DNA of 61,742 nt, counting the filler, from Hausera hauseri (taxonomy: Eukaryota): NCBI GenBank assembly GCA_046269625.1. It is 10 parts of 10 records of this genome, joined end to end, with 100 filler letters (N's around TTAATTAATTAA, not from the genome) between each part and the next. Parts side by side here need not be neighbours in the genome. Positions count along the whole stretch, not along the records: positions 1 to 5,939 come from JBJURY010165643.1; 9 more parts are not named here. One strand, written 5' to 3'. The notes below the pieces were generated by a model. It searched no databases. It was not told the DNA's origin and saw only the letters and a program-made list of their open reading frames with translations. The translations under genes and the position numbers were made by a program. Below, one piece after another: positions 1 through 61,210 of this stretch. The first letter of the stretch is position 1. Every line of letters starts with the position of its first letter.

Positions 1-104
1 CTTTCTCTGGGATTTGGCTCCAACTTATAACTATGGTAGGGTTTAATTCTAACTATTCGGGTGTAACTTCCGTGTGACTAGTATTTAAAATTAGCGGCTT
101 CGGC

Positions 105-239
105 CCGGCATACTGGACATGTGGTCTTTCCATTATCTAGCGTCCATTTCTCCAGGCAGTCTCGACAAAACTTGTGTCTGCAATATGGATTATTTAATAC
201 TACATATCCTTGCTTCAGGTTCCCTTCACATACTGGACA
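105..239 (-). CDS. C3HC4 RING finger (putative E3 ubiquitin ligase domain)
   Basis: CPVC-x15-CRHKFCRDC-x3-W-x8-CPVCR. Confidence 0.92.
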
Positions 240-1260
240 CTCGTCTTCTTCTTTTGCCCATTTCTCATCATCTAAATCGAATCGTGATGTGATCTCTATG
301 GGTTCTGCTGTCAAACCGTCTTCCTCTTGATATAAGTAAGCGTCTATTCTCTTTTGCTTCGGGTTTATCGAGCTTTTCTTAGGATCGCATCCAACGGCTA
401 TTGGGGCCCAATTGCTGTTAGTATCTCGATCTAAATCGGGAACTTCACCAGCCGATCGATATTTTTGGTACTGTTTCTTTAGTAGTAGCTTAACTGATTT
501 GTCCACCGGGACTAAGATTTTACCACTCCGTTTAGATTGAAATATTGGGGCAATGTATTTTCCGATTTTTGGATTTTCCCAGACATACGTGTTCTCGTAA
601 ACCTGTAGGCAAGCAATAGTTTGACAAAAAACATTGCTTCTTTAATCTTCTGCCTACTATAGTACTCAGTGACTACTAACATCCTGGGGTAATCTGCCGT
701 AGTAACATAATGAACGTTTTCCGTGGATGTCTTTTTTCGTAATACGTTTATTTCTGTTACTTGTTCTTTCCGTTGGCTTGGTTTTTCCGTATACTTCTCA
801 ATACGGGACTGCGTATTTAGTTTTGAAGGTTTTTCTGCCGGTTGTTTTGATTTTGGATCTTTTCTATCTGACCTGTGTTCTTCCTTTAGCCCCTTTTCTC
901 CTTCTTTATTTTTCTTCTTGAATAAATAATCGGAAAAGGAGGTTTTTCTCTTTGTTGGTTTCCCGGTTTCGGTTTCTGAATTTCCATGTTTTTCTTCTAT
1001 GTATTTCCGAGAAACTTCTGGTATCTTAAATAAACTATTATCCGCTGTAGCGCCATTACTTGTACTGGGTTTTTCATCCATCCGTATCTTATTTTCCTTT
1101 TTCTCCGTTCTTAATCCTTGTATAGTTATTTGGTAGTTCCATTCTGGTTTGATCTCGATATTTTTGGGTGGAGAGTATAGGCGAACATGTTTACGGTATC
1201 GTGTGCTGAGTCTTTTGGATTTTGGGAAATTTCGTAAGTTTTGTGCAGGGTTGCTGGGAA

Positions 1261-1780
1261 TCCATTCATGTTCCCACTCTAATCCAGCATTTATATCCCT
1301 TAGATGTTGGGATCTCTGATTTGCAGTTAGCACTCTGCTTATTTTTATATTTCCCCCGGTCATGGCCTCTACCATTAATTTAAAACGGCCTTCCATGATT
1401 AGTGGTATATTACTCTTTTTTTCTTCTACCTTAATTCCCACTTGTCACATAATAGTTGGGTATGTTTCTATCTCTCTCACTCCGGTTATATAAGTTACCG
1501 GTATGGCTAGTTTCTTCATTATCCTCTCTACTTAATACCCCACTAAGACGTATCCACAGAGGCATTGAGCTACTTCTTGCTGCACTAACTTGACATCTTT
1601 TCCATGATTCAATTGCTCTTTTTTAATTCCAGTAACTTCTGAGTAAGTTTCAAGCACTTTCCGTCTTCGGTTAATGATTTCCGAATAGACCTCGGCCCCG
1701 TCTTCTTCTCGGATGGATATTTCGATTGCAATGTAATTTCCTTTTTCTCCTTCCCCATAATTTATCGCGGCAATCCTGAG
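1261..1780 (-). CDS. REX4/ISG20-like DEDDh exonuclease domain, catalytically degenerate
   Basis: VYSEIINRRRKVLETYSEVTGIKKEQLNHGKDVKLVQQEVAQCLCGYVLVGY follows the REX4/ISG20 pattern (..VxDYRTxVSGIxxxxLxxGxxxxxVQxEVAxxLxGRILVGH); the ExoI DCE motif is replaced by AINY. Confidence 0.7.
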
Positions 1781-2435
1781 ATTTTTTTCATCAGCCACCA
1801 GTCTGAACGAGTGCAAGTGGGTATCTTGTTCCTCCTTTGTGGGCCTTTGCCTAAACTTTCAGGGTGGTAACGGTATAAGTATTTCTTCTTCTTCTGTTGT
1901 TTCGATCATCATTTTTACCGGCAAGGCAGCTACGCGAAATTCTAACTCGTAATTGTATAAGTTTCTACTGTTGAATACAAATGTACTAAACCGACTTTGT
2001 CTTCCTTGGAAGGAATCCCATTTCTGATCCTTTAGTCGATGGTATATCTCCCCGTCTGCCAAGTGCACATAAATCTTCTGTTCCTTCTCTGGTTGGTATT
2101 GAGCGATTGGTTTGAAAGGGTATGCCCTAGCATCTTTATCTTCCCTCCATGCGTACAAATATACTGCTCGTGCCTCCTTGGTTGTTCCTTTTAGTCCATT
2201 CGGTATTTCGTCAACCTTCCCGTATTGTACGAAACTTTTTCCTTGTATTTTTATGTTTATTTGCCTATAGACGGCCTTTGAATTTGGGATCCGCACTGTT
2301 ACGTAGTTCTGTAGGAATTCGTCGATACTAGGTCGACTGGTCATTTCATCCATGTGGATCCTAAGTCGGCTCGGATCTTCCTTGGCGTCGATACTAATTC
2401 GGCTTGGTTCCATCTGTGTCTGAGTACTTACCAAT

Positions 2436-2462
2436 CTGAACAAAAGAACATAAAGGTTAATC
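2436..2462 (-). promoter_or_regulatory. Candidate splice acceptor for the accessory ORF
   Basis: Minus strand reads gaTTAACctttatgttcttttgttCAG|attg: branch-like TTAAC, pyrimidine tract and CAG just upstream of the ORF's first ATG (2413). Confidence 0.45.
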
Positions 2463-2556
2463 TTAAAACAAAGGGTGGTTTTAAACCCAAACCAATTCTT
2501 TGTTTGATGACAGAATAACCTGATCTGTAATTGTCAGGTTATTTTATCATATGGAT

Positions 2557-3859
2557 CTACGGGGTCTCCAATTCCCTTAGTTCCCATTCTGAATTTTTAT
2601 GACGCTTAGAATAACATTTTTTGGTGACTAGTCGAAAAATCGCAATTAATATAATGAGAACAAATGCTGAAAGTACGGAAATGGATACAATTGGTAGTGT
2701 GGTTAATCTTAGTGGTGCTTGAGTAGTAATTGATGTTGTGGTTTCGTCGTTTATATCTTCACGTGTATGCGGTTTCGCATGATTTTCTTCTAGAGTATGC
2801 AGTGTAATTGTTTGGGTTGCTTTATTCTCTGCAGACACTTGTATTATGTATTCAGGTTGTGGTTTTAGTAAATTGCACTCTGTTTGATAAGTATTTTTAA
2901 ATAGAGTTACCATTTGCTTATTATATGTGGTCCTCCTGTTTTTCCTCCACAGAGAACACGATTTTATATCGTTTGGCCGAAAATTTGATAGTTATATTTT
3001 CCAACTCTACTTTATGTACGTCGTTTGTCGTAAGAGCTCGATCAGCTTTATTAGTCGTAATTTCCACTGAAATTTTCTAAATCTTATTTTCCGGATAGTA
3101 AGTTCGTAATTGTATGCTTGTCTTATTTGGTCGCACCTCGTATAAGGCAAATCTTATTCTCAATTCTTGGTTCACCGGCAGTTTGCAGCAGGGGTGCTTT
3201 ACACCTGCGCGAATAGAGCAATATTCTATTTCCGGGGTCGGTCCAGTGGTTGCTTTAAATCTAATACTAATTTCTCGGCTATCTGTTAATTTTATCCGGG
3301 TATCTACTTGGACGCATTGTCTTGCCTTGTTAACCACAATTCTCTGAATATTCTTGTCTAATAATTTTATATCTGGATCCGTATATTGCAGCATTTCGTT
3401 CAGTTCTATTTCACGGCTTTTTACTCATGTAGGGATAATTAATTGAAATGGTGGCTTTAATTCATAAATTTTAGATAAACTTGGTACGTACAGTTGATAA
3501 GTAAGGTTGTAGGCACATCGGAAATCTACGTCGCAACATTTCGTATACTTTCCGTATTCAAAATCACAGTTTTTGGTTTCCTCCGTATTTATATTGTCCA
3601 AGAAAATTTTGAATCTTCCAAAATCATAATGTGATTTCTGCACCCTGAACCCGACGCATGTGGAGTTTGGCAAATAGAAATGAATTGACATTGATTGTAA
3701 TAATCTTTGAATTTTTCCGATTGATCGTTTTCTTTCTGCAACAAATCTGTCGTGCCACTTTTTTGCTTGTGTTCTCGGAATGTAAGAAGCAATTAACGAT
3801 AGTGCTAAAACTATCTGAACATATAAGATTGGTCTGGTTACTATTGACGAAGTTTTCAC
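2557..3859 (-). pseudogene. Predicted type-I membrane glycoprotein (~430 aa) in frame with the integrase C-terminus; fragmented into ORFs 3425-3859, 3077-3394 and 2557-2913
   Basis: Signal-like ILYVQIVLALSLIASYIPRTQA; two repeats CV...C-x9-CC...LY; FN3-like LKPQPEYIIQVSAEN; Thr-rich stalk; TM IVSISVLSAFVLIILIAIF; basic tail; sequons NST, NLT, NKT, NIT. Confidence 0.7.
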
Positions 3860-3894
3860 CTCGCGTTGGCGTAAATTATAACGTTTGTTGGGTC

Positions 3895-4880
3895 ATATTT
3901 CTGTCTTGACAGCTCTTTGTACTGATATGACTTCTTTTCCATTTTTGTTAATATATACTGTAGTTGGCGTAACCCTTGTAACTTCGTACGGTCCTCTACC
4001 TGTACGAGTCAATTTTAATGAAGTGCCTTTTATGGCTACTGGATAATGTACATAAACCCAATTTTTTTGTTCTATATAATGTGGTTTCGCTTTCTTATAA
4101 TATTGCTTCTTAAACTGTTCCTGATATTCTTGGGATAGTTCTTTGGCGATTCCTCAACACTTTTGCAACCGCGTTTGCAACACCTCTGCGAAATTCTGTT
4201 CTAGATCTTCGGAATTAACTGTGTATGGCTTCATTCCTAAGTCCGTGGGCAACACGGCTTCACCTCCGTACATCATAAAAATGGCGTAAATCCTGTCGCT
4301 GGATGTGGTGTGGTATTAATTGCAAATTGAGTTCCCTCCAAAAACTCGTCCCAGTCCTTTTGGTCCTTAGCCACTACTGTAGATATTATATGTATGACGG
4401 TAGCATTCATCCGTTCGACCATTTCATTACATTGAGGATGATATGCAGTAGTTGTTAATCGTTCAGTTTCAAATATTTGGTGATTTTCTCAAATAATTCA
4501 CTGGTAAAATTTCTTCCTCGATCCGTGAGTATCTGGTCTGGGGATCCATATCGACAAATAATTCTTCATACAACGGCTTCTGCTAAAGTTTCAGCTTTCT
4601 GATCTATCAGTGCTATCAATTCGACAAAATGAGTTAGGCGATCGGTGCATGTCAAGATATACTTATTGTTCTTGTGAGTCGTAGGAAGAGGTCCTACTAT
4701 ATCCATCGACATGGCCTGCATGGGCCTATCGGGCACATTGATTGGTTTTAATTCAGCCCTGTAGTTTTTTGTCTTTTTCTGTTTAGTTGTACACACTTCA
4801 CAGGCATTCACCCGATTTTTCACGTCAATATAGATACTAGGCCAAAAATATTTATTCATTACTCTTTCTAATGTTTCCTT
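3895..4880 (-). pseudogene. Gypsy integrase (HHCC zinc finger, DDE core, GPY/F), interrupted by stops and frameshifts
   Basis: H..GH at the end of the 4881 ORF, then YFWP..CEVC, MDIVGPLP, YGSPDQILTDRGRNFTS, TTAYHPQCNEMVER, GPYEV. Confidence 0.93.
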
Positions 4881-5939
4881 CTAAGACATGTGTCCGGCTA
4901 AGTATGAGTCATGTTCTGATATCAGCACTTCGGTTAGTAAACTTTTTGCAATAACCATTAGCTGTCTTCTCTTTCTTTCGTAATATAAAATATCCTCATC
5001 ACTCTTGTCATTTATGATGCGATATTTGTGTCCATGTCTACGTAAATGCTCCTTTAACTGTCGTCCTTTCGGCTCGACATACCTTTTTGCAAATTCTATA
5101 ATCTGCTGGATGACCTTATCCTTTGTTTGTTCTGCTGAAATTTTAATGGTCTTCTCAATCGTTAACGCGAGTTGACGGTCTATCATTTCCTCAAGTTGAT
5201 TTTTCTTCATTACGGTGATTGCGCTTGTTTTAGTCTTTAATCTCGATAGTGCATCAGCGTCTACATGTTTATTTCCTGGCTTATACTGGAATTCAATATT
5301 ATATCTGGAGATTTCTTTGATCCATCTATTAAGTCTGCACACCGGGTTATTGGCTAGACCCTTTAAGGTCGTAACGGCCTTGTGGTCAGTGACAATTATA
5401 ATTTTCTGCCCGTAAACATAAACGTTAAAATGTCGAAGTGCTTCCTTTACCGCTAGAGTTTCTAATTCGGTAACAGAATAATTTTTCTCAGCTTTTTTCA
5501 AAGAACGTCCTCCATAAGAAATTGGATGTTTTAATTCTTCATCCTCTCTTTTCTGTGCTAATTCATATCCAATACCTTCCTTACTGGCGTCTGTTTCAAT
5601 TATAAGCGGTAAGGTAAAATCTGGATATCGCAAAACGGGTTCATTTGTTAATGTTTTCTTCATCTCATCAAAAGCCTTCTGCTTAACGTCTGTCCATTTC
5701 CATTTGATTCCTTTCTTAAGTAAGCGATATAGAGGTGCATTAATCTTTGAATTATCTGGTACATAGGTTGCGTAATAACCACAGAGTCCCAACCAGTGTC
5801 TTAACTCTTTCTGATTTTGCGGTTCCATGCAATCTGATATTTTGTTCAATAATGATTTATCAGGTTTCGATCCTCCTTCTCCAACTATATGGCCAAGGTA
5901 GGATACGGCATTTTGAGCCCATTTGCATTTCTTCGGATT
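4881..5939 (-). pseudogene. pol: Gypsy pol: RT C-terminus/connection and RNase H
   Basis: KKCKWAQNAVSYLGHIV, WLGLCGYY, PVLRYPDF, IIETDAS, NYSVTELETLAV, VTDHKA, YKPGNKHVDADALSR; a frameshift lies near 5850. Confidence 0.95.
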
Positions 5940-6039: not shown

Positions 6040-6244
6040 GCAGGTGTTCAAATACTTATTTGCAGCAGTAACACACAAATAAATTATTAAAAAATCATAC
6101 ATTGTGATTTCTGGATATTTATTTAGATTATGTCTCTCACAGTGGACATGCAGCTAAGATGAACATTTCAGACCCTCCATGATTTCTAAGTGGGAGAACT
6201 TGCAAAGTCTCAGGCTGTTCAGATACTTATTTTCCTCACTGTAG
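6040..6244. mobile_element. Tc1/mariner terminal remnant (fish-type IR/DR end)
   Basis: Repeated ttcaaatacttattt / ttcagatacttattt motif ending ...cctcactgTA. Confidence 0.5.
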
Positions 6245-8180
6245 TTCAGTCAGTTTGACAGACATGGAGCTAAAATCTGAGCTGGATCCTGATCTGAGCA
6301 CATTCCATTTTCTATTTAAATTATTTGTTGTCATGGCAACTTGGCAAGACTTCTTCAGAGCTCTGATGACATCATCTGTGACATCATCAGGTCTCTTCTG
6401 TGTCAGACCTTGGTACCATAGTGAGCCTTCAGAAACCAGGTTCCACTGGTCCAGTCAGACAGAGAGAGGACTTGGACCTGCTCAGCCGGTCTTACAGCAA
6501 CATGTCTTCTGGACTCTTGTGGACCTGGTTGGAAGCTTGGTCAGGAAGACTGAGAGGAAGTTCTTCAAAGCAGATTGTGTTGAAGGACAAAGCTTTGCTC
6601 TTAGAAATGAAAAGTCAACAGAAGAACCTGCAGATTTTTGATTGGACCCAAAGTCTGATGGCCAGACCGCCAGCACGTCTGAATGAAGTCAATCTGTTGG
6701 ACTGAACTTGGACACCAGAGCAGCGGTCAGAGTGAGACGGACAAAATGTCCTCCAAGGTCCAGCTGAGCTGACTGCTGTCACATTTAGGTGAGAAGTCCC
6801 CAAAGGTAGAGATGAACTCTTTGTTTTAGAGAAGGAGGACGGAGGAAAGACCTGTTTATCATTGGACTTAGAGGAAAATGTCTTCAGGGGGACACGTCCA
6901 AATCTTGTCCACAAAGACTTGCTGACTCATCACTTGCTGACAGTTAGCTCCACTTTAACTGAGCAGCTTCATCATGAACTAATTATTAGTTCCTCGTGAC
7001 TCTGGTCAGCTGAAAACTGGAGGTAATGAGGAGGTCAGCATCACTTTATGAGCTGAAGCAGAGCACTAGCTAAAAGCTAAAATGAGCAAAGTCATGGCTT
7101 AAAGGAGCAAAAGGCCAGCTACAAGCTAGTTGTTGCTACATGGTAGCTAGAAGCTAAAAGAAACAGAGTTATATCCAAAAGTTTGAACTGTCAGCTAAAA
7201 GCTACAATGCTGCCCTCTGGTGTTCAGTTGTTAAAAGCACAACAGAAAACTGAACTTGAGTTTTCTTCATGTGTGACTCTGATCACAGCAACATAAACAC
7301 TCAGAAGTTTGTCTGAATGGAAAGAAAATACTTTTGGATGAAGACTTTTGCACACTTTCTTGAAAGATCCACCATGATGTGAGAGTGAAGGAAGCCTTCA
7401 GTAAATGAAAAGCCTGATTGTGTTTTTTAGGATTCTGAAACAACTCTTGGTTAAAAACAACAAAGTAAACAAACGGTGTCGTGCAGAAGTGTCGAGGTTT
7501 AAAATCACTTCATGTTGGCTTCTGTCACTCTACAGCCTCTGCTTCTAAGAGCTGATTCCAAATGTCTGTTGTTCCAAGAAAATGTTCCATTTAGACCAGA
7601 GAGTCCTGAACCTGGTGTTCAGGAGCAACTTTTAGAGGTTCCACAGTGTAATGAGCAAGTATTGATCCACTAACAGAGGCTCACTGACTGACAACACACC
7701 TTAGAAAGGCACACGTTCAGGAGCTGCCTGCTTCCAGAAGCTGTTGAAGTGAACAAACAGACTGATTGTAGGCTCATGCAGCAGGGAAACACATCAGCTC
7801 AGTCTGTCATGGACTGACAGAGACCTGCCTCTGTGCTGAAAGCCAGGACTGAACCAAGGACCTTCAGAGCTTCAGGCTGACACTCAGTCAGGTCCATGGG
7901 ATGGTCTACTGCTGCACCAGATTGTTGGACCTTTAAAGTCAGGAGACGTTTGATCTTTGGATTCAAACATCTATCAGCTGTTTGATCTTTGAAACATGGA
8001 GCAGATCTTTGTGAACTCAAGCTTCTGACATTTGATCCAAAGTGTTTCTGATCTCTTGTAATAAAGTGCTGTTCAGAATATTTTAGTGCAATAAAAGGAT
8101 ATTTTTGAAGCTCTGATGGCATTTTGACGTCTAGTCACTGTAGAATCAACATGAGATGGTTGTGTTGGAGAACCATTGAA

Positions 8181-8430
8181 TTTGGTTTTGATTTTGCAAA
8201 TCTGATCAATGTTCAAGTAGCAACGTCCTTGGTACGTCAAATCTCTCAACATAGGTGAATTTGCCAACATTTAGTCAATATTGATTTTTATTTAGATTTT
8301 GCAAATCTAATCAACGTTAAAATAGCAACGTCATTTCCACGTCATATTTCTCAGCATAGGTGAACTTGCCAACATTAAATCAATACTGATTTTAGTTTAC
8401 ATTTTTCAAATGTAATCATCGTGGAAATTT
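8181..8430. repeat. ~106-bp degenerate tandem repeat (~2.4 units)
   Basis: gattttgcaaatct..atcaa..gtt..aa.tagcaacgtc....cataggtgaa.ttgccaacatt recurs at ~8190, ~8295 and partially ~8400. Confidence 0.8.
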
Positions 8431-8838
8431 CAAAAAGTATTAAGTCCTGCCTTTTAACATAGTTTGACAGAAATGTATTACTCTGATCACTGTTTTAACT
8501 TAAGTATTGATGTGCTGAACCGTATAGCTGCGCAGCAAACATCTTGAAATTGGTACATTAATATGTTTGTCACGTTTGGTGGATTGTACTTTAAGGTCAG
8601 AGCCAGGGTGCAGACAGAGGCAAGGAGTTGTAATCTACAACTAAAAATGTAATAACAAAACAAAATGCTGTCGTGGCAGCAAACATCAAAAACCAAAACC
8701 TCTTGCAGAGCAGGGCCCTCATGCATAAAGACTGAGAGCAGCTGCTGGTGCCGCGCGGACCGCCCTGTCCCCGCCCACAAATAAATATGCTAATTAGTAT
8801 AAATACAGTGCAGGCTTCCTCCCTTCATCCAAATAACC

Positions 8839-9652
8839 ATGGCAACAGCATTGAGCAACACCAAAAAAGAAATTTCACTGAATGTGAAGTAGAGGTGTTA
8901 GTGTCAGAGGTTGAGGCAAGAAAACAACTTCTATTTGGAAGTCCCTCCTCTGGGATTACTGATAAAATGAAAAGAAATGAGTGTCAGAAAGTAGAAGATG
9001 CAGTTAACGCGGCAGGAGCACAATTGAGATCACTGTCCGAAGTTAAGAACAAATGGTCCCACATCAAGGTGGATGTGAAGAAGAGGGTTGCTGCACATCG
9101 CCGGAGTGTTTCAGCCACAGGTGGAGGCCCAGGTTTACCGGAGCTGACTCCACATGAAGAACGAGTTGCTGCAATGATTGGGGAGACAGCGCTCGTTGGC
9201 ATCCTGCCAGCACATGAAGCTGAATCTGACATGATTGGTGTGTATGATATGTAAAGAAGTCCTTTCATTATGTTAGTCTAGACAGGTAAATATATTGTGA
9301 CCTATCATTAAGCAGAGTGAGACTCTGAGTTATTCAAGTGTTTTTATTGGCAGATCAAGTGGAAACCGGGGAATGCAGTGCCAGAGACACAGAAGAACCC
9401 GGTTCTGCATCCAGCTTCTCCACAGGACCCCCGACAGCCCCTCACTCGGAGCAACAGGAGGCGCCTGAAGCAGAGGCACCGCGGGCCTCGGTTGGAGGAG
9501 GTCATCAGTCAGGCCGGGTGCTGACCAATGCTGTGCTGCAGTCACAGAGGGACATTGTCCAAACAATGAGGGACATTTGTGCTGAATTACAGCAAACCAA
9601 CAGGCTTTTGACTGATATCAGTGAGTCATTAAAGAAACTGGCTGAAAAATAA
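8839..9652 (+). pseudogene. Harbinger Myb/SANT-like DNA-binding protein, two exons
   Basis: KRNFTECEVEVLV..LFG..AVNA..RS..EVKNKWSHIK..ATGGG. The Kozak ATG at 8839 is 1 nt out of frame (A-run 8863-8868). Intron ~9238-9353; exon 2 to 9652. Confidence 0.85.
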
Positions 9653-9679
9653 ACAGTTTGTGCTCATACCTGTGTTGTT

Positions 9680-10318
9680 CTACAATGTCTGCATGAAATC
9701 CAAACCATGCTGTCTCGCTGCTGCATTTAGCTCATGTATGTGTGCTGGCCCAGGGTCTGGATCATCGTTGTTGACACCCACATCAAGCAGAGGCACACCA
9801 CCAAGATGTGCCACATTATGCAACACGCCACATGCTACCACAATGAGACATGCCTTCTGTGGGGAGTAGAGCAGGACGCCACCACTCCTGTCCAGGCAGC
9901 GCCAGCGGCCTTTGAGATGCCCTATAGCACGTTCAATAACAGAGCGTGCACGGGCGTGCAGCGTTATATGGCAGCTCTTGTTCTGTCTGGGGGTTGAAGA
10001 GTGGAGTGAGGAGCCAGGAACCAAGTGGGTAGCCTTGGTCACCTCAGGATAATTAGTAGACTTAATAAACTGAACTGACATGAATATGCCTCTCATATAT
10101 CAATTAGGAAGACTGTGACACAAATGATAAAATGCTGTAAATAATTCAGAATGTTGCAAAAATAATATTATACCTAGAAGCCAGCCGTCACACACGGCTC
10201 CTGCTTCAAGTTTATTCCCAACAATACTATTCCTCAGTATAAAGGAATCATGAGTTGAACCAGGCCAACGTGACACTAGATTTGTGAAACACATTTGTGC
10301 ATCACAAATTAGTTGCAC
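9680..10318 (-). pseudogene. Harbinger (HARBI1-like) DDE transposase, 5'-truncated, with intron
   Basis: QLICDA..RWPGSTHDSFIL, GWLLG|DQGYP..WLLTP, RARSVIERAIGHLKGRWRCL, ACGVLHN. Confidence 0.92.
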
Positions 10319-11651
10319 ATTTATTATTTTTATTTAATTTATATATTTTATATTTGTGTGTGTTACTGGATAAATGTGGGACAGTTTCATCGTTCAAGTT
10401 TAAACACTAAAATGTTATAATCATGGAAAAAACACAGCGTTGATGCTCCTTGGATTAAATAACACTGAATGGAGTCTGATTTCAGTGGATTTAGGGGAGT
10501 TTTGCTGCTTTGTGGTTTGTTTTTGTCCACTGAAAAACTTTGCGTGGCTGCCGCACGTTCTCACGGCAGGTGAAAAATGTGCGTATATTTACGCACCCTT
10601 TCACGCAACGTTGGTTTTGATACATCCCGACGTGTGCGTAGAACCTGGCGCACGCAGCTTTTTGATGCAAACGCACCGTTTCTACATGAGGCCCCAGAGC
10701 TACTGCTGACAGAAGACATAATAATGCCAAATCACTGAACCAAAGCACACAGCAGGAATATAAAGTCAAACTAATGAAGTGAAACCACTGACACCTGTGC
10801 AGGGACAACCAGGATCAGGTACAGGTGGGTGTGGCAGAAACAGAAGCAGGAACAATGCTGAAACTCAACAGACTAACCAGAAATACACAAAACACAACAT
10901 CAAATACTGAATAAATACTAAACAAAAGCACAAGTCTTGACAGTTTGCAGATCAGCATCCTGAAACACGGTGCAAAACACCAGAAACTAAATAGTTGATT
11001 GTACAATCTTTGTTTTGTGTTGGAACCAAGTTTACAGTTTTTTCAACTGATGTACTTAATCTCAGCATACAGTATAAAAGCAACCTGATGTTGCTCCCAT
11101 AGAGATATGTGCGGACTGTAACCACTGCACAATCTGTTCCAGAAGCTCATTTGGTCATGCGCTAAGAGATCTACTTTTGGATTACAGGTTAATGCGCTTG
11201 ATTTAGGAGAATATACTGGAAATAATTATTTCCATACTTAATTATAAAGGTGTGCTAATTTATATTCTGTAAACTATTTTACATACATTCTGATTAATAA
11301 AATATAGATTTACGGTGTGTACATATTTATATGAACTTGCCGACCTAAACAGACCTCATTTCTAGACGACGTTATAAATGATCTCATCTCCGTTTTATTT
11401 ATTTATTTTTTCTGGAATAAAAATCCACATCTGTTGCAAACGTTCCCTTTTCTATAAAACACTGCAGGTGAAAAAAGACTGAAATCAATCCATTCTGTCA
11501 TCAAGCGGTCTAGCGATGCTACATGCTAAAAACAAACAGCCCTCCCGACAGTATTTCTTTTAGCGGATGCACAGATTAGCTGACAGTACGGATCGTGCTT
11601 CCCAAAGTACGCCGGGAGGAAAAAAATAAGGACGCCGGTAGATGAAGATAG

Positions 11652-12334
11652 CCCAGATAGCAAAATATGAGTGAATCAACATTGAAATCTGGTCAGGCAT
11701 GATATTGAATCCATGTTAAAATGATACAAAAAGTGGTCGCTGACTTACTTGTTGAAACAATGTTGGGTTTTCAACCATAACTGATATCAATGTTGCTTCA
11801 GCATCGATTAGACGGCGTTTCAATCATTAGAATTCAACCATGAAACATTGATTCAATAACATCTTTTCAACAGTGGTTATTTGGATAGAATTGGATGATT
11901 GTCTGATGGTTGATTCACCATCAATCATCGACCTTAACCAAAAATCAACTCTTTGACCAGAATCCAACAATGAATTAACATCTTCTGCTCTCTGGGTGGA
12001 CATGAACTCAAACATCAGATTCAGAGTTGAGCTTTCAACATTGCATCATTATTCATGTGTCAACACTTTTTAATTAATCAGCATTGATTGGATGTTGGAA
12101 CAAGGATATTATTCAACTGACATATTTCAGCAAAATGTTTTAGTCATGTTTGTGAAAAACAATGTTGATTAGACATACAACTCAAAACTTGATATTTAAA
12201 AGCTGAGTCCACAGTGAGTTCACACCACCATTTCAACTGTTTGGTCTTCAACATTGTTTTGACGTTGAATGAATGTTCTTCTTTAAACTGACATTATTTC
12301 AACAACATTTAATGTCAGTCATATGCCAGCTGGG
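11652..12334. mobile_element. Possible non-autonomous CCCAG-terminal DNA transposon with internal ttcaac/gttgaa repeats
   Basis: CCCAGATAGCA... and ...TGCCAGCTGGG form imperfect TIRs; no clear TSD. Confidence 0.35.
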
Positions 12335-13358
12335 AACTTTTACAGTTCAAAATCTAATTTACTGAAGACCTGGGTTGGTGCTCCTCACAATCCTCTGATC
12401 AGGCTTCTTAGGCTGCAAGCAGGTGGGGGGGTTAACTCAGCGCAAGCATCTTTATGGTACCAATTACAGACCCAGAAATGGAACTTTTAAAGTAACTCAC
12501 CACAGAATCAGGGAAAACCCAGGAGCCGCAGATCAGTTTTGTGCTCGTAGGTACATTTATTTGAAGGTGAACAGAAATAAGGGTACAGTGAACTTAAAAC
12601 AAAGATTACAGAAAAACTGATATCTATAAAAAAATCAAAGAAATTATAAAATGTCGCTAGGTGAATATAATCACAGCAAATATCCCCCAACAATGCTCAA
12701 TCTAAATCTAAAAATTAAAGTGTTAAAAGAAGAGTAACAAAGATAAATGCATGTCAGGATTATCTGCAGAATAAGGACAGATTAATGAGAGCTAGGACTT
12801 TATATGTCTCTAAGAAAGCTTTTTAGAACAAAGTTCAGTTCAAGAGAAAACATGACCTGTGGGGTCAAGAGGTCATGTTAAAATGACTCATCCTTCATGC
12901 TACACAACATAACACACAATAAATTCATGCCTAAAATAAAGTTTGTTGTCATTTTAGCGTTATTTGCAGCTTACTGCTTTGCTCTGTCTGTCGTTTTCAT
13001 AGACAGAAGAAATTAATCAATCAAAGTCTTTCAGCAGAGTATGTATACCTGGTGCACTGGCTAGGACACAACACACGAGTTAACAAATACAACCATTAGC
13101 AATGTGACAAGAGCAGATTAAAACCCTGCATGTCATTTTCAGCTATTCTGCTTAAACATACATATATGACACTGTAAATTTTTAAATAAGGTCAAAGTTA
13201 CCTAAAGACAACAAATGAGTTGCTGTTGTCTTGATTTCATTGGATTTTCCCTGGGGTCTCACACAAAAAACAATGTTTAAGGTTAAAATATCTCCACAGG
13301 TGTGTCTACAATTACTCCAATGTGGTCAACTAACCCATCAAAGTTTCCAAAGTCATGG

Positions 13359-13388
<30 letters not shown>
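13359..13388 (+). repeat. (CAT)10 microsatellite
   Basis: Read directly from the sequence. Confidence 0.95.
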
Positions 13389-13389
<1 letters not shown>

Positions 13390-13440
13390 TGGACATTCCC
13401 AACTAGTTTAAAAGCAAAATAGTCTTAGATTATTTGAAGT

Positions 13441-13692
13441 GTGTGTGTAGAGAAAAACTGTTTTCTCCTGTGTGGTTTCTCATCAAGGAGTCAAATTAGT
13501 GTTTCTTATGTGGATTCTTGTGTCTTTTAACTGCCCTTTGTGGTAAACCTTGGATCACCCAGCTCACAACAAAATGGTCTCTGTCCTGTGTGGATTCTCA
13601 TGTGTGTGTTTAAATTGCTCTTTGTGGTAAACCTTTGATCACACAGCTCACAACAAAATGGTTTCTGTCCTGTGTGGATTCTCATGTGTGTG
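13441..13692 (-). CDS. 3' end of a tandem C2H2 zinc-finger gene (last fingers degenerate), truncated by the contig end
   Basis: [41 protein letters not shown] with 84-bp periodicity. Confidence 0.85.
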
Positions 13693-19865: not shown

Positions 19866-20507
19866 GAAATTGACTATGGCGATCTCAAATCTCGAGTCAG
19901 ATATTCGAAATTCAAATATTTTTGACTCGAATATCGAATATCGAAATATTCGAAAAATCTAACAGAGAGAATCGATTCCTCATATATGAAAACCTTCTAA
20001 TATATAAAAATGATTCCATGAAAATGTACTATATAGACATAAAATAAATATTTTGAATTAAGCAAAATGTGCATTTAAAGCCGAGTGAAGCGGAAATCAA
20101 TAAATGCAATAGAGGGACTTGATAGCAAGCCATTTATGCCGAATCGGAATATAGCACCAGGTAATCGAATTCAAGCTCACAAGTCGAATACTTATCTATT
20201 CGAACTCTAAAACTCGGTCAAACATGCATTATTTGAAGAATCTAATGACGTCATGGTCGAAAACCTTAAATTTGGCTCCATCTTCTATTTAATTTAATTG
20301 ATGCATTAAAACAAAAGCGCATTAAAACCAATCAATAAGCGAGGCAGTACATGGTGATATGGCAATATTTTTCATTATTTCCAAAATCACTTCAACGAAT
20401 GGTGAGCTTTTAATTGTGGTCCTCAAATAGTTAGTTGAATTTAGGTGTACAAACTTTACAGCGAATGTTTGGCTTAAATCCACGAGCCGGAAAATTGCCA
20501 CAATGTT

Positions 20508-20969
20508 ATGAAGAAGTACTTTGGCCACATGTACAACAGGGTTCAGTATTATATATGCCTTACACGTGAGGTAATGTGCCAAACCAAATATGAAAACTTT
20601 TACAGTGCCAATAAACAGCACTTGATTTTGTTCACCAAGTCGAAAAAACAAATATTCAGTACCAATATGCCAATAACGACTTTCGTGGCAAAGAAAAATA
20701 GAAGGTGCAGTTTATATGTGTATTGCACATGTGCAATACATAACCCTCAGAATTGCTACAATGCCATGCGGAGCTATTATGGACACAAATTCAATAGAGT
20801 CCTCTATTATATTTCCCCTGGATGTGAGGCTGTATGTGATGGAGAATACACGCAATTTGACAAAGATCATATTGCTTATTTGACAGACTTCAATTCAAGG
20901 CCAAAGAAGGTCATATTTAATGAGCAGCATCCTGCTGTGAGAGCACAGCCAGTGTACAGCTTGCTTTAG
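20508..20969 (+). CDS. Unknown protein with an internal duplication, upstream of pPolB
   Basis: YFGHMYNRVQYYI..CQTKYENF..HLILF..KKQIF versus YYGHKFNRVLYYI..CDGEYTQF..HIAYL..KKVIF. Confidence 0.55.
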   Translation: MKKYFGHMYNRVQYYICLTREVMCQTKYENFYSANKQHLILFTKSKKQIFSTNMPITTFVAKKNRRCSLYVYCTCAIHNPQNCYNAMRSYYGHKFNRVLYYISPGCEAVCDGEYTQFDKDHIAYLTDFNSRPKKVIFNEQHPAVRAQPVYSLL

Positions 20970-21100
20970 CAGCAAGGCCTGATGCAGGACCAAAACGCCT
21001 ATCAGAAGTAGCAGCAGATGTTCCATCAAAAAGCCAAAGAGAGCGGCCAGTTGATGCAGCTGCACTGAAAAGCAAAGTTCGCCGATACTTCATAACAGCA

Positions 21101-24100
21101 TTGGGGCAGACATCGTTCCATGAATTCCTGCAATATTCAAAGAAGGAGGCTGCAGGAATTCTCCAGGACAACTTGTTGGAGCTGAAGGCCCTTAAGATGA
21201 ACTTCAAATTGGAAGCCACCTTCAACAATGTCAAAGGAGAACTGTCTAATAGAGCCTTCAAGACAAAGAACAGGACACTATTGAAATCGTTTAACATTAA
21301 GGATTTCATTACTGAGGACTATGCAAGGCTTATCCGTAAAGCCGAAGAAAGCCAGGACAAGAAGAGTGGTCGGACTTTAGCAACAATAAAGGGGTTACTT
21401 GTGCATGTGCACAAGTATTCTCCCATGAAAGGCAGTTCCTACATACCGCTTCCTCAATGGATAGTTAAGAAAAAGGCATGTGTCAATGTCCATAATAATG
21501 ACAACATGTGTTTCACGAATGTCATTTTATCAAAACTAGTCCAGGATCAACATAGTGCTTCCCGAGTTTGGATATATAACAAAATGCAGTACACATATGA
21601 CTTCAGCTGTATTTCATTCCCGTCGAGCTTACATGAAGTCGTAAAATTTGAAAGCATGAACAACATCTCAATCAACATTTTCGGATTGGAGGAGGACAAA
21701 TTTTATCCATTACAGGTGTGCAGGGAGGAATTGGAGGATCATAGGGATCTACTTCTGCTAGATGATGGAGAAACGAAGCATTTCATGTGGATCAAAGATT
21801 TTGAGTGCCTCGTAGGTTCTTAAATATTCAAGCATAAATCAAGGCTGGAAATATGCAAGAAATGCTTTATCCATTTTAATGGGGACACAGCCGTAGAAAA
21901 GCTGGTGGAGCACAAAACCAACTGTAATACAAATTATTGCATCCGAGCAGAATTCTTAAAGGAGGACTACCTGGAATTCAAGGAGTTTGAGAAGATGCAG
22001 AAGGTGCCGATTGTCGTCTATTGTAATTTTGAGGCCATCCTCAGCGCAGTTCACAGTTGCATCCCTAATCTCTAACATAGCAGCACAACAGCATATCAAT
22101 ATCATGAAATTTCATCATATTGTATGTATGCCAATGGACTGGACAATGAACCATTTCTATTCAGAGGGCCAGACGCAGCAGCACATTTTCAGAAGAGATT
22201 AGAAGACATGGCTCATAGGCTTGAAAACATGCTTCAGCAACATAAAGATACAATGAGCATGTCGAAGCAGCAAGAAGATAAATAGAGCAAGGAAACATAA
22301 TGTTACTTGTGCCACAAGTCCTTTAGCAAGGATAATTATAAAGTCAGGGATCATTGCCATTTTAAGGCAAATATCGAGGTGCCGCATGCAACAACTGCAA
22401 TCTACGTTGCAAAAAATGTATATATGTGCCTATAGTGTTCCACAATCTCAGTGGTTATGATTCCCACTCATTGTACGGGAACTGCGTAATATTGCGGGGA
22501 ACATTGATGTCATTCCAAACAGTGAGGAAAATAATATCACCTTAACTAAGCATGTAGGCCGCATTAGACTTCGATTCATAGAGAGCTTCCGCTTCATTAG
22601 CTCGTCACTAGATAGATTAGTGAAGAACCTCCCTACAGAAGAACTCAAGGAGACGAATCGGTTCTTCCCCACTGCATTTGACCTCGTCGAGAGGAAAGGC
22701 GTGTTTCCCTATGACTATATAATATCATGATAAACACTGGATGAAAAAGCATTACCGGACAAGAAGGACTTTTATAGTCAGTTGTCATATTAGCGATGCT
22801 GACTATGAGCATGCCGAAAGAGTATGGCAAACCTTCCAGTGCAGGACAATAAAGGAATACAGTGGTATCTATCTCCTCACAGATGTGTTTCTGCTTACAG
22901 ATGTCTTCGAAAGCTTCCCGGATGTGACCCTTAAGAGCCACAAGTTAGATCTAGCCCATTTCTTTACAGCTGCAGGAATGAGCTGGGGGGGGGGCGATGC
23001 TGCGCTATACCGGCATAAGGCTCCAGTTATTGAAGGATTACAATATGTTCCTCATGGTTGAGAGAGGTATCAGGGGTGGAATCGGCCAGGCCATTCACAG
23101 GTACAGTGAGGCCAACAACAAATACATGGTAGATTATGATCCATCAAAGGAGCCTTCATATATATCATATCTGGTTGCCAACAACCTGTATGGATAGGCA
23201 ATGAGCAAACCATTGCTGTATGATATCTTCAAATGGGTCAAGAATCCTGAAGACATCTCAATATTGGACCTAGATCCCACTAGAGATACGGGTTATATAC
23301 TGTAGGTGGATGTGGAATACTAACATAGCATCCACACAAGGCATGAACAGCTGCCATTTCTGCCGGGGAGCAAGAGGCCGCCGAATGGTGAGCATAAGAA
23401 GCTGCTCTGCCATCTCGGAAACAGGGAGAGGTATGTAGACCACTATATAAATCTCCAACAGGCCATCCAAAATAGACTCCGAGTCATCAGGACTCATTGA
23501 GCCTTGCAGTTCAGGCAGTCCAAATGGCTGAATTTATACATAGACCTCAATACCCAGTTGAGGGCCAATGCCAAGAACGAGTTTGCAAATGACCATTTCA
23601 AACTTTACAACAACTCTGTCTTTGGCAAAACTATGGAGAACATCCGGAACCGGATAAACATTGAGCTGGTATGTGACTGGAAGAGAGCACAGAAACTCAT
23701 CGCCAAGCCCAACTTCTACAGCAGCACAATCTACACAGAGAACCTGGAGACCATCCATATACTCAATACATCACTTGAGTTCAACAGGCCTATATATGTG
23801 GGCATGTCCATATTGGATCTATCCAAGACCTTTATGTATGACTTTCATTACAACATCATGGTCCCCACATTCAAGGAGCTGCAGCTAATATACGTGAACA
23901 CGGACAGTTTCATATACCAGATCCAGACAAATGATGTCCTTGAAAAGTATACAAAATTGGCGCAGTATATGGATACCTCAGACTATCCGAAGGATCATCC
24001 AAATTATTCAATTACCAAGAAAAGGTCCTCGGGAAGTTTAAAGACGAGGTGAATGAGAAGATTATCACCCGTTTCGTGGCGTTGAGATCAAAAATGTACG

Positions 24101-24366
24101 CCATCGATGTAAGTAGTCAGGTAAAGAAGCGTGCCAAGGAAGTTCAAAGGGCTACGTTAGCTAAAGACATTGGCTTTGGAGATTTTGAGAGAGTGTTGCG
24201 GGAGCAAAGTCACATAGTCAGCGAGATGAAAAGGATCCAGTCCCGAGAACATCAAATTGCCACAGTTTCGCTGCGGAAAAAAATTCTCGATTGGTTCGAT
24301 GATAAAAGGCACATTCTTGAAGACGGAATTCAGACACTACCTCATGGACATGTGGCATTATTGTAA
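21101..24366 (+). pseudogene. Protein-primed family-B DNA polymerase (Polinton-type) with embedded endonuclease VII-like Zn motif; many stops and frameshifts
   Basis: GSSYIPLP, RDHCH..YRG..CNNCNL, FHNLSGYDSH, RKGVFPY, GIRGG, YLVANNLYG, FKLYNNSVFGKTMEN, YVNTDS, DDKR. Confidence 0.93.
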
Positions 24367-47561: not shown

Positions 47562-47688
47562 TCTGTCCATTTCCATTTAATTCCCTTTTTAAGTAGGCGA
47601 TAAAGGGGTGCATTTATTCTTGAATTATCTGGCACATAAGTTGCATAATATCCGCATAGTTCTAGTCAATGCCTTAACTCTTTCTGTT
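47562..47688 (-). pseudogene. RT connection segment joined directly to the post-protease region (RT core deleted)
   Basis: QKELRH*LELCGYYATYVPDNSRINAPLYRLLKKGIKWKWT, near-identical to C1 5690-5815. Confidence 0.88.
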
Positions 47689-47805
47689 GTATTTGTGCAT
47701 AAATTATTAACTCTGTTCTAGGTGGAATGTTCTCATCTACTGGTATCCACAATTTTCCAAATTTCCTATCCTTAGCCTTTTTTACGTCTTTATTTGGTCT
47801 AATTT

Positions 47806-48294
47806 CTAATTTCCTGTTTGTAAATTAATTGCTATATTTGGTAGTCTTTTCAGTAGATCACATCCTAAAACTACGTCGTCAGTTAGTTGTTCCATAACTG
47901 CAAATTCGTGACAGAAAAACTGTCCAGCAATTTGAACTTCTGGATTCCATTTAAACATCGGTTTCGACATTTGGCCAAAAGCTCCTGTACTTCCTGGATC
48001 TTTTGAAGATGATGGGTATAATTGTCTTCTCAACGTTTGAGGTATTGATTCATTTTTGATGTAGGACATCTCGGAACCTGTATCGATTAATGCATAAATT
48101 TCCAAATCTTTAATAGTAATTTTGGTGAAGGGTCTTCCTTCTATTACTGTTCCGAAAGAGTTTGATGCAGCTTTTGGGCGTTTAACTGCCGATATTTTAT
48201 GTCCATTGATTCGGATTTCTGGGGAGGAAATCATATTTTCTGACAATTGTTTTAGTTCTCCGTTTGGATATAATTCATTGTTTTCTATATTCAA
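47806..48294 (-). CDS. Retroviral-type aspartic protease
   Basis: IYALIDTGSEMSYI ... DDVVLGCDLL. Confidence 0.93.
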   Translation of the reverse strand: MNIENNELYPNGELKQLSENMISSPEIRINGHKISAVKRPKAASNSFGTVIEGRPFTKITIKDLEIYALIDTGSEMSYIKNESIPQTLRRQLYPSSSKDPGSTGAFGQMSKPMFKWNPEVQIAGQFFCHEFAVMEQLTDDVVLGCDLLKRLPNIAINLQTGN

Positions 48295-48789
48295 TACTTC
48301 CGCTTCCTGTGTACTAATTAATGGTTCTCGGTTGTTAGTATGTTATATATTCTGAAAAGTTTTTAACCTTGGATTTTCCCAGAGTAGTAGTCTAGTTTCT
48401 ATATTTCGGGGTTCTCTCGGGAAATATAACATTCTGGGGTCGTCGAGGGGCCGTCGATAACACATTTTCCGTAGGACTCCGTAACGTTTCGTTCCTTCAT
48501 AAGGGTCTTCTAAACTAATTATCCTTTTATAGATTTCCATCTGATATGAATTTATGGATCGTTTGTCACAGTCTTCATAGACCGGGGTGGTAGTTGGTAG
48601 CATAGCCAATGGTGCTTTAATGATCGAATACGTTTTATGCCTGTTGGTTCCTGAAAGTACTTCTCCTCCCTTAGGCTCATCATCATCTGAATTATTTCGT
48701 CGTATATTAGGTTTTGTAAGTTTCCGTTTATACAATAACATAGGCCTTCCTTTTCGTTTACGATTATAATATCCGACATAGCGTTCCAC

Positions 48790-50590
48790 GTCCGATTCTC
48801 TTCGTATGATTTTAAGAATTTCCCAAAAGGCGTTATGATAGCAGTCAGTATTTTACATGAAAATCCGGTCAACGTAAATATTTCGTACCCGTTAATTATT
48901 GCTGGGATGACTGCCTTATTCATTTGTATTAAAAAATATATCGCTAAGAATCCATATACGGCTTGTCCAAAAATCAAAAATCTTCCCAAAATTTTGCAGA
49001 GTATTTGGGTAGTTAATCGCTGATAATGGTTTACTACGGGCAAGGATTCCCATTTAGCTTGATGTCGAGTATCGTCTACTACAGAGGCCATGGCTCGATT
49101 TAATTTGTGTGTCCGCTGTCGCGGAAAAGCGAGGAATTGTCTGAAAGCTTCGCTTTCCTTAGGTCTATATATGCCTTTTAACGAGGTATCTTGGAATTTG
49201 TCGTCTGTAATTCCTTTTGCAAGATTTGTTCCTGTTAATTTGTTTGGAGCGGCAGTAATACCCCCATTTGGTAAACTAACCCAATCCGTTTCACTTCGTC
49301 TAAAAATGGGTTCTCCTAGGCTTGCTTTACAATCTTTAAGGATCGTCGGTTCCGGTGCATTGTCTAATAGCACTCTAGTGAGTGGCATAGCTAACCTTGG
49401 ACTATTTTGGTAAATAAAGGGAAGTTCTTGCATGCAGCGTTTTCCTTCAACGTTAATTGGCACATCTCTTTTCTCACATTTGTAAGTTAATAGTACTTCA
49501 CCAGTAATACGACCAAAAATTCCTTCTCTCATGGGAATTATTGGCATAAATAAAAGCCATTTTTGTCCTCATGATTTCCATGTCCAATTTACAATCATTA
49601 TTCCTACTTGCGCTTTGTAATAGAAGTAATCGTCTCTGTTTTTCAGATAGTCCTCAATTCGGATATCTTGCGTTTCTAACTTGTAAGTCTTTAAATTTAT
49701 CTCCGTCTCCGCGACAAAAATGCTTTGTAATTGATGGCGAACATCACTACCTGGCAACGTGAAATCAATTCTTTCTTAATGAATTTTAGTCCATGTTAAT
49801 TGGAAACTAATATCGTACGTGTATGATGCTCCAGAATGTCCTCGCGTTTTCTTGAACTGATGATGGAATTGTCTACATATCGTTTTCTGGTAGTTTCGTT
49901 AAATTTCAATTCTCTAATTTTGATAAAATTACAGCTTTTCCCAGGGCGGTTGCCATATTATAACCGAACTTCTAAAAGCACAAGTTCCGTCTTGTATATG
50001 ACATTTTCGATTTTTGGTATATAGCTTGGTAACACTGTGGAACATCGTTTTCTGTGCTCGCATTTCTGATTCATAGAAATCTACAACCACAACGTTTGCC
50101 TCTAATCCTTTTCCAGTGTCATATTCGGCTCCATTGCATTGTCCATTGTGCATATCCAATCTTCCGACTCCTATTTTGTATGCTCTTATTATTTTTCCCG
50201 GTTGCGTCTCTATTTCCATGCTATCCCAATTTAACTTCCCGGTCTCTCTGGTCTGCTTGCAATGCTGATGTTCCAAATTCATTGGTATTGGAGGAGTCGT
50301 TGGTTTAATTATCGGTGAATGTCCGTGCATTAGCCCACAGTAAAAAATGCTACGAGATCGTCTCAACATACATTCCATTCCGTCTAATGAAATCAATTTT
50401 TGTTGCTGGTATAAAAAATAATTTTTCTCTATTGTTTCCAATTTGTGCGGTTTGCGTCTTCGCACGATTCGAGATCCATCAACGAATACTTCTGTCCGAG
50501 CTTAAACCTGTCGCAATCGTAAATAGTAACGGCACCCATTTGTTTAACCAACATCATTATAGTGAGTAAGCTAATTAGCCAGTTGGACTC
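48790..50590 (-). pseudogene. env: Envelope glycoprotein, chuvirus-G/gB-like (class III fusogen), copy 1
   Basis: Internal signal WLISLLTIMMLVKQMGA, then YDC..YSLMDLESC, CMLRRSRSIFYCGLMHGHS, GQCNGAEY, GEVLLTYKC, RCMQELP, KGIYRPKESEAFRQFLAFP; TM FLIFGQAVYGFLAIYFLI. Confidence 0.82.
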
Positions 50591-54280: not shown

Positions 54281-54281
54281 G

Positions 54282-55814: not shown

Positions 55815-55817
55815 AAA

Positions 55818-57830: not shown

Positions 57831-57835
57831 TTTGG

Positions 57836-58038: not shown

Positions 58039-58104
58039 TGCGCTTCTTGAGAGAATTTAGTTTCAACATAAGGCGGAAATTCAGCGCACTTGTATGGTTT
58101 CTCT

Positions 58105-59271: not shown

Positions 59272-61210
59272 TTATTGTCTTTTATTTTTGCGTTTATTAA
59301 GAATTGAGGGTCTTCCCCTTTGTTTGCGATTGTAATATTCAACATGACGTTCTACAGCATTTTTCCATCGATTTTCATCGTATGCTTTAAACATTTTTCC
59401 AAAAGGTGTGATAATTGCAGTTAAAATCTTACAGAAGAATCCTGTCAATGTGAATATTTCATATCTGTTTATAGCAGCTTGGATTACGGCTTTATTCAAT
59501 TGTACTAAGAAGTAGATGGCTAAGAATCCCGATGCAGTTTATCCAAAAATTAAAAATCTTCCCCAAATCTTATAAAATATTTTTGAAGTCACTCTCTGGT
59601 AATGATTAGCGCCAAGGAGAGATTCCATTTAGCCTGATATCGTGTGTCATCTACAACCGAGGCCATGGCTAGGTTTAATTTGTGCATTTGCTGTCGTGTA
59701 AAAGCGAGAAACTGTCTAAATGCTTCAATCTCTTTGGGCCTACATATGCCTTTTGATGAAGTGTCCTGAAATTTATCGTCCGTAATTCCTTTCGCAAGAT
59801 TTGTTCCCGTTAGTTTACTTGGGGTAGTAGTAATACCTCCATTTGGTATGCTGACCCAGTCTGTTTCACGTCGCCTAAACATGGGTTCTCCCAAACTCGC
59901 TTAACAATTTTTAAGGATAGTAAGTTGGGTTGCATTATCTAATAATACTGCCGTCAATGGTGTAGCTAATCTGGGAATGTTTTGATAGACAACCGGAAGT
60001 TCCTGTATGCAACGTTTTTCTTCTACATTGATGGGTACATCTTTCTTTCCACATTCATAAGTTAGTAATACTTCACCTGTAACTAGACCGAAAATTCCTT
60101 TTCTCATAGGAATTATTGGAGAAGCCAGTTCTGGGTTGGTATATATAAGAGCCAGTTTCGATCTCATGATCTCTGTATCCAATTTACAGTCATTCGTTAT
60201 CATCTTGTGGTACAACTGAGTTATCCCAGTTTGTCCTTTGTAATAGAAATAATCGTCTCTATTCTTCACGTAGTCCTCAATCCTGATATCTTGTGTTTCT
60301 AACTGGTAAGTTCTCGCATTTATGTCAGTTTCTGCTACGAAGAATGCTTTGTAGTTAATAGCAAACATTACCACATCACAACGTGACATCATTTCCTTCT
60401 TAATAAACTTTAGTCCATGTTGATCGGAGATTAGTATGGTGGGCGTAGGATATTCTAATACATCCTCGCGTGTCCTTGAATTGGTATCTAGTTTATCCAC
60501 ATATTTTTTCCCTGTGGTCTCAATAAACTTGAATTCTTTTATTTTAATAAAATTACAGCTTCTTCCTGAGGGAAATCCCATATTATAACCGAGCTTGTAA
60601 AAGCACAGGTTCCATCTTGTACATGACATTTCTGATTTTCCGTGTATAATTTGGTGACGCTATGAAACATTACTTTTTGTGCTCTCATCTCTGATTCATA
60701 GAAATCCACTACTACTATATTTGGTTCTATCCCTTTCCCGGTATCATATTCAGCTCCACTACAGTGTCCAGTATGCATGTCTAACTTTCCTGCTACCACT
60801 TTGTATGCCCTGATTATTTTACCAACTTGAATTTCTAATTCCATATTGTCCCATTGTTCTCTTCTGGTTTCTATAGCCTGTTTACAATGATGTCGTTCCA
60901 AGTTCATGGGAATTGGAGGATATGTCGGTTTGATTATGGAAGAATATCCGTGTATTAATCCACAGTGAAAAATACTGCGAGACCGTCGTAACATATATTC
61001 CATTCCGTCTAGCGATATCAGTTCTTGTTGCTGATATAAGAAGTAATTCTTCTCTCTTGTTTCTAACTTGTGTGGTCTGGCATCTTCACACGTTTCCAGA
61101 TCCATTAGAGAATATCTTTGACACATCTTGAATTTATCACAGTCTTATATAGTGACTGCTCCTAGCTGTTTTACTAACATCATTATTTTTAACAAATTGA
61201 CTAAGCAGTT
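59272..61210 (-). pseudogene. env: Envelope glycoprotein, chuvirus-G/gB-like, copy 2
   Basis: Colinear homolog of copy 1: RYSLMDLETC, SIFHCGLIHG, GHCSGAEY, NDCKLDTEIMRSKLAL..NPELA..GEVLLTYEC, RCIQELPV. Confidence 0.82.

Follow-up and report, generated by a model that had tools for sequence, protein, structure and literature searches.

A predicted tandem-FN3 membrane protein gene behind the integrase of a divergent Ty3/gypsy family in Hausera hauseri

What kind of gene follows the integrase of a Ty3/gypsy element in Hausera hauseri, and is its product made as a continuation of Pol or as a separate protein? The question is raised by a minus-strand stretch that a first-pass annotation had read as a second membrane glycoprotein fused behind the integrase, i.e. 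as a candidate attachment protein in the canonical env position of an element that may encode a class III fusogen as well. The window, by which we mean the whole stretch of DNA that was analysed (61,742 nucleotides of assembly GCA_046269625.1), consists of separate pieces joined end to end with N spacers, and the gene of interest is encoded by the minus strand of piece 1-5939. The sequence text, strand and coordinates quoted in the annotation agreed with the window.

Gene reconstruction and predicted fold

The minus strand of piece 1-5939 carries, in order, an RT thumb, RNase H, integrase, the membrane-protein gene and, beyond it, an extended decayed ORF followed by a RING finger. The pol part (3896..5939, minus strand; RT thumb/connection, RNase H and integrase) is decayed and truncated by the piece end, but shows the RT-RNase H-integrase order of a Ty3/gypsy LTR retrotransposon and clear Pfam matches (RT_RNaseH_2, E 2.4e-34; Integrase_H2C2, 2e-07; rve, 1.1e-4). 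Among Ty3/gypsy pols it is divergent in sequence: the 56 proteins matched in the database are 29-43% identical to it, the best pols 37-42%. No long repeat (LTR) was found within the piece, both ends of which are cut. Family copies were taken from one public run, in which 14,148 contigs match the piece and cover all 30 of its bins; because this run may be the source sample, we take the contigs to represent other copies and not another organism. The window copy is evidently decayed, since nearly all depth at the codons of three of its other stops contradicts these stops (among the variants listed, 40 of 1781). Summed contig depth is lower over the membrane-protein gene than over pol, a measure that cannot rank genes.

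The minus-strand region 2557-3892 is the damaged remnant of a genuine gene. Its first part, VKTEI*PNKRYNLRQREVKT, stands in the integrase frame, and its terminal part (LKPQPEYIIQVSAEN, stalk, transmembrane helix and basic tail) stands in a different frame that ends at 2557-2559. When 1.84 billion representatives were searched with a read-through of the gene, in which X was set at the stops, one protein was returned: P0058 (479 aa, E 1.8e-39), a singleton from a 4,939-base ENA contig that is a natural intact homolog. P0058 aligns from the signal across both inner stops (32% over 337 columns) and over the third module, stalk and transmembrane helix (34%), and shares ten Cys columns with the window protein. 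Since it aligns colinearly through all three window fragments, these fragments constitute one gene. The two inner stops that the annotation had placed at 3425 and 3077 are indeed present (3425..3427 and 3077..3079, minus strand) and are attributed to decay, P0058 having residues opposite both, whereas the frameshift expected around 2975 was moved by the same alignment to near 2940, with about nine residues absent relative to P0058. No intron was seen in the gene.

The protein is predicted to be a type I membrane protein with a signal, three FN3-like modules, a stalk, a transmembrane helix and a short basic tail. The signal-like segment (3764..3835, minus strand, as are all features of the gene; hydropathy 2.56 over a 13-aa window) is its best-conserved part, with 19 of 25 residues (76%) identical to P0058 versus 29-43% for the modules, and it ends in a small-residue T-Q-A site of the cleavage type, at which it would be cut. 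Module 1 (3428..3691), with the motif C...C-x9-CC, is followed by its repeat, module 2 (3089..3376; 41/95 residues identical to P0058), and by module 3 (2794..3004; 19/50 identical to residues 353-402 of P0058), which contains the frameshift. The juxtamembrane stalk (2692..2793) had been called Thr-rich; it exists, but is only modestly rich in S and T (29%). Both the transmembrane helix of about 19 aa and the basic tail held up: the helix (2635..2691) reaches a hydropathy of 3.04 over 19 aa and is matched by a helix at 433-465 in a low-confidence model of P0058, and in the tail (2557..2634, 25 aa plus stop) seven of the first 14 residues are K, R or H. This tail carries no enzyme domain.

The proposal of two repeats was likewise borne out, although modules 1 and 2 of the window copy, compared on their own, resemble each other weakly (z 3.05; reached by 21 of 2000 shuffles). 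In P0058 the repeat is clear (z 9.8), as it is in the two cross comparisons between the window protein and P0058 (z 7.0 and 8.1), with 0/2000 shuffles in each case, and the CC motifs recur with a period of 116-117 aa. The four N-glycosylation sequons of the window copy exist as well, but we rejected them as evidence: 3.2 are expected, 39.5% of 5000 shuffles reach four, and none of the four shares a column with the four of P0058.

Module 1 is predicted to adopt an FN3 fold. The model of its P0058 counterpart (pLDDT 78.5), folded together with the two window repeats and thus predicted from an alignment of three rows, gives a seven-strand beta sandwich that superposes on FN3 domains. VIA aligned it with fibronectin (Z 9.4, rmsd 2.6, 86/93 residues aligned) and also with Dscam and NCAM, nearly all of the 50 matches listed being of the FN3 type, and Foldseek put cytokine-receptor FN3 domains at ranks 1-6 (TM 0.63-0.73), so that the check for an Ig or FN3 fold suggested beforehand pointed to FN3. 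Among the viral structures, Foldseek gave weak matches to module 1, none at E 0.001 or better. Module 2 is predicted to be FN3 by its homology to module 1. The third FN3-like module is the least certain part of the original description: it is homologous to P0058 and carries the L-x-P-x-x-x-Y strand, yet it resembles module 2 at z 2.7 only; with this motif and the beta strands in the low-confidence full model it is likely FN3. The full-length model of P0058 is poor (pLDDT 46), and its Foldseek list, led by tandem FN3 proteins, serves as a lead only.

The absence of fusion-protein features that had been noted was confirmed, as neither the window protein nor P0058 has a furin site of the type R-x-K/R-R or matches a fusogen profile in Pfam, and the best fold match is FN3. 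The WSXWS motif of class I cytokine receptors is also absent from both. Word-based protein searches gave no matches for the read-through and the profile search returned P0058 only; Pfam and PDB sequence searches of the gene were blank, without a Pfam fn3 match. In the ESM Atlas, the first piece of the gene retrieved nothing and P0058 retrieved FN3-leaning feature matches only (0.83-0.87), which we treat as leads. The metagenome and viral contigs scanned held no loci for P0058 or its alignment, and the viral contigs held none for pol or env. Scanning the metagenomes with pol yielded 11 distant loci (28-38%), and no relative of the membrane-protein gene (E below 0.4) was found near pol in any of these 11 or with any of the 56 database pol proteins.

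The junction with the integrase

The integrase tail had been described as running in frame, through one stop, into the signal-like stretch. This stop is found at 3893..3895 (minus strand), and it appears largely private to the window copy. In the junction region 3816-3950, to which 186 contigs of the one public run match, 48 contigs with 1610 of 1739 units of depth (93%) differ from the window at the stop codon and do not encode a stop, and seven of the eight contigs listed span this codon by at least 31 bases on each side. The variant rows of 3816-3950 contain no indels. The segment beyond the stop (3836..3892, minus strand; RYNLR at 3869-3883) thereby continues the pol frame, and in the window copy this segment offers no in-frame ATG ahead of the signal.

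The family variants suggest that this frame is under selection. Out of 18 variant rows, two inside the stop were excluded and only variants of 12% or more were listed; past the stop there are 11 variants, and nine of them leave the residue unchanged when read in the integrase frame (against an expected share of 0.30; p 6e-4). In the other minus frames two and three are synonymous, on the plus strand at most six, and none of the 11 creates a stop. The test covers 45 bases in one run and reaches 3848, four codons short of the signal, and it uses contigs that are short and unphased and copies that are related and hence non-independent. Because the stop is largely private, indels are absent and nine of 11 variants are synonymous, the pol frame of the family would run on into the signal. 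Not all copies continue into the membrane-protein gene, however, since 12% of the contigs matching the junction region pass into unlike sequence.

Splice acceptors near the junction are weak, with 3-9 pyrimidines out of 15 at the 12 YAG sites in 3780-4050. The strongest acceptor among 184 sites lies at 2436, just ahead of the next ORF, and a donor-like GTAAG is found four bases past it. P0058 starts with a Met of its own, 11 residues ahead of the signal, and an RYNLR-like lead-in is lacking; the fusion to integrase may therefore not hold for the whole lineage. From this Met, a separate ORF was at first favoured as fairly likely, a reading that the open frame and the synonymous bias overturned for this family. 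Because of the open and selected frame, the missing ATG, the weak acceptors and the conserved signal taken together, we favour an in-frame fusion, which is probably the arrangement in this family. The gene is thus retained in other copies, and in most of them the integrase frame is open across the stop: family contigs extend over all bins and the stop is absent from most of the depth. The first-pass annotation had named what would speak against it (copies without the gene or a host insertion, no predicted signal or transmembrane helix, a TGA conserved in all copies), and none of this was found.

The gB-type env and further cargo

The annotation suggested that the element may encode a class III fusogen besides this gene. 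The window does contain such fusogens, on the pieces 47562-57280 and 57381-61742, separate from piece 1-5939. A class III env of the gB/chuvirus type lies between gag-like ORFs and protease at 48552..50501 (minus strand; PF24664, E 1.6e-25 and 2.4e-10), and a second gB-type env lies upstream of a protease-like ORF and RT on the other of these pieces, at 59901..61144 (minus strand; PF24664, E 1.9e-17; RVT_1, 6e-22). The two pieces are 69% identical in DNA over 3.5 kb and both have the layout gag-X-gB-type env-protease, in which gag is called by position and appearance and has no Pfam match. The connection to piece 1-5939 comes from the pol residues at 47564-47686, of which 38 of 41 are identical to that piece while the 56 database pols reach at most 22. 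By this similarity, env piece and membrane-protein piece are probably of the same family, and one element would carry both genes. The original claim is thus supported by the shared pol residues, but the fusogen stands on other pieces and no contig was found that joins env and the membrane-protein gene. With env located between gag and pol, the slot after the integrase is left free.

Several further observations concern these pieces. At 47562-47810 (minus strand) the RT core is missing from this relative, whose protease region passes directly into the RT thumb, which is an internal deletion. The interval from the gag-like ORF to the gB-type env (50954-53461, minus strand) is occupied by several ORFs without family, which form further cargo. 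The stretch 58105-58400 (minus strand), after the protease-like region, resembles by eye what we take to be a dUTPase-like remnant, without a Pfam match; it would presumably correspond to the one described between PR and RT in Burro.

Downstream of the membrane-protein gene, the same element has additional cargo at 78..2413 (minus strand). A long ORF, decayed like the rest, includes a stretch that weakly resembles DEDDh exonucleases (ISG20L2, E 0.062; DnaQ, 0.13; SDN1, 0.88; without Pfam support) and is followed, in another frame, by a C3HC4 RING (E 2.6e-10). The cargo behind the integrase on piece 1-5939 thereby amounts to at least 3.9 kb. The intergenic region 2400-2560 (minus strand) contains a hairpin with 17-base arms at 2507-2550 and folds at z -2.4 (1/200 shuffles), and summed contig depth spikes to 33,407 in bin 2377-2574. 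Elsewhere in the window, piece 6040-13692, which is higher in GC in its first part, is fish-like in look and may be DNA from a different organism included in the assembly; 8736-10333 holds what by eye is presumably a Harbinger-like transposase; and remains of a Polinton-like DNA polymerase B together with an ankyrin-repeat gene were recognized by eye at 20478-24366 and 39471-41133 (plus strand).

Possible role and known systems

As a tentative explanation, with somewhat less than an even chance of being right, we propose that the element bears a tandem-FN3 protein, in frame behind the integrase and freed by signal peptidase, which serves as a non-fusing attachment or adhesion protein beside the gB-type fusogen that its near relatives encode ahead of pol. 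Translation of Pol would proceed through the integrase tail into the internal signal, which would insert into the ER and be cut after T-Q-A, likely by host signal peptidase. The integrase would be left with a short hydrophobic end or anchor, and the disulfide-bonded FN3 protein would reach the cell surface and could be incorporated into budding particles; displayed on these or on the producing cell, its ectodomain may bind a partner at the surface of host cells. The strong conservation of the signal would fit this scheme, because a site of processing and cleavage would be constrained. The FN3 fold by itself shows no function. The more specific notion of a two-protein entry kit, in which the class III fusogen would come from the region ahead of pol and the attachment protein, a distinct tandem-FN3 product, from the end of the integrase, is drawn by analogy and must be called rather unlikely.

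The same gene and processing might instead provide a host modulator on the producing cell, either a signalling-dead receptor mimic acting as ligand decoy or a blocker against related elements, without any attachment role. This would agree with the top Foldseek matches of module 1, which are FN3 domains of cytokine receptors (PRLR, EpoR and IL-7R), with a tail of just 25 aa that lacks an enzyme domain and with adjoining cargo of a regulatory type (a RING and an exonuclease-like stretch). The viral fold matches also include the soluble IFN-gamma receptor of a poxvirus, though no higher than rank 33 (E 0.055). In VIA, however, the scores of cytokine receptors and those of fibronectin, Dscam and NCAM differ by no more than 1 Z unit and the fold therefore does not favour receptors, P0058 has no WSXWS motif, and no host paralog was found in the protein searches (1.84 billion representatives; profile), which leaves a modulator with a limited chance of being correct. 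That the gene is a captured host FN3 membrane gene, carried as a functionless passive passenger, appears quite improbable. P0058 could be a host gene and FN3 plus transmembrane proteins are common in animals, but the family copies span all 30 bins of piece 1-5939, the junction is in frame and selected, an intron is missing, and no host-like cluster beyond P0058 exists among the 1.84 billion representatives.

The remaining alternative concerns the junction and not the function: the membrane protein would normally be a separate ORF, with its own start or a spliced RNA, and the in-frame link a side effect of one subfamily. We consider this distinctly unlikely, as against the Met start of P0058 and the remark of Arkhipova and Yushenova (PMC6431247) that accessory ORFs of Burro may be either separate or within the polyprotein stand the open frame with its synonymous bias right up to 3848 and without indel rows (one run), and a window copy that has no in-frame ATG and only weak acceptors.

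The preferred reading, an attachment or adhesion protein linked to the integrase, can be compared with several known systems. Errantiviruses of the GAG-ENV-POL type, with an HSV/gB-type env between gag and pol, are described from Nematoda, Bryozoa and Platyhelminthes (Chary and Hayashi, eLife, PMC13524379). They resemble the elements studied here in their Ty3/gypsy pol, in the position of the gB-type env (here on two related pieces) and in being multi-copy, but only three ORFs are described for them, whereas at least 3.9 kb of cargo follows the integrase here; the words 'fibronectin' and 'accessory' do not occur in the main text of PMC13524379. In the supplement of that paper an LTR is unlisted for 6/6 Schmidtea and 8/9 flatworm rows, with a search that reached 3 kb past pol, and these rows would fit unannotated cargo, as a suggestion only. 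In Burro/GYPSM1, a giant planarian Ty3/gypsy element, env stands between gag and pol and in frame with them, and the cargo domains, which include RING, are found either in frame within one polyprotein or as accessory ORFs (PMC6431247); the position of env, the RING cargo and the two ways of carrying cargo make it similar; an FN3 or post-integrase membrane protein is unlisted in PMC6431247, a comparison made by description. Burro/GYPSM1 is moreover over 25 kb long, with a single giant ORF containing BIR, MATH, BCL2 and Smc, none of which was found among the 23 ORFs scanned in our window, whose pieces are short, incomplete and decayed.

Other elements also encode a non-env ORF downstream of pol. 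The ORF3 types of bdelloid rotifer LTR elements include transmembrane proteins and DEDDy exonucleases, but are transmembrane ORFs of 210-230 aa or enzymes, and 'fibronectin' and 'in-frame' are absent from the main text (PMC5408684). The sORF2/FAST-like proteins of MDG1-group elements are, as presented in bioRxiv 2025.03.14.642691, non-Env transmembrane proteins for spread, sometimes encoded downstream of pol; they are candidate fusogens of about 100 aa in env-less elements, unlike the window protein of about 480 aa with FN3 domains. Cargo-rich GAG-ENV-POL elements are already known, as are transmembrane ORFs behind pol (PMC5408684, bioRxiv 2025.03.14.642691). Tandem-FN3 surface proteins (fibronectin, NCAM, LAR, class I/II cytokine receptors) share the predicted fold of module 1 and the type I topology, but identities are 4-21%, Pfam fn3 and PDB sequence matches are lacking, and the window protein has its own C...C-x9-CC and no WSXWS. 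In the literature covered, which took in few subscription papers, we found neither a retrotransposon-encoded tandem-FN3 membrane protein nor a Pol-processed, receptor-like FN3 protein.

Herpesvirus gB-type fusogens depend on companion proteins to bind the receptor and to be triggered, and the membrane-protein gene is a concrete candidate for such a companion of the gB-type fusogen, located in the usual env slot. The analysis also suggests that flatworm-type GAG-ENV-POL elements may carry kilobases of Pfam-invisible cargo behind the integrase, which could explain missing LTR calls. If true, the two-protein entry kit would share out the tasks of entry as large enveloped viruses do, and would do so with an adhesion fold of host type.
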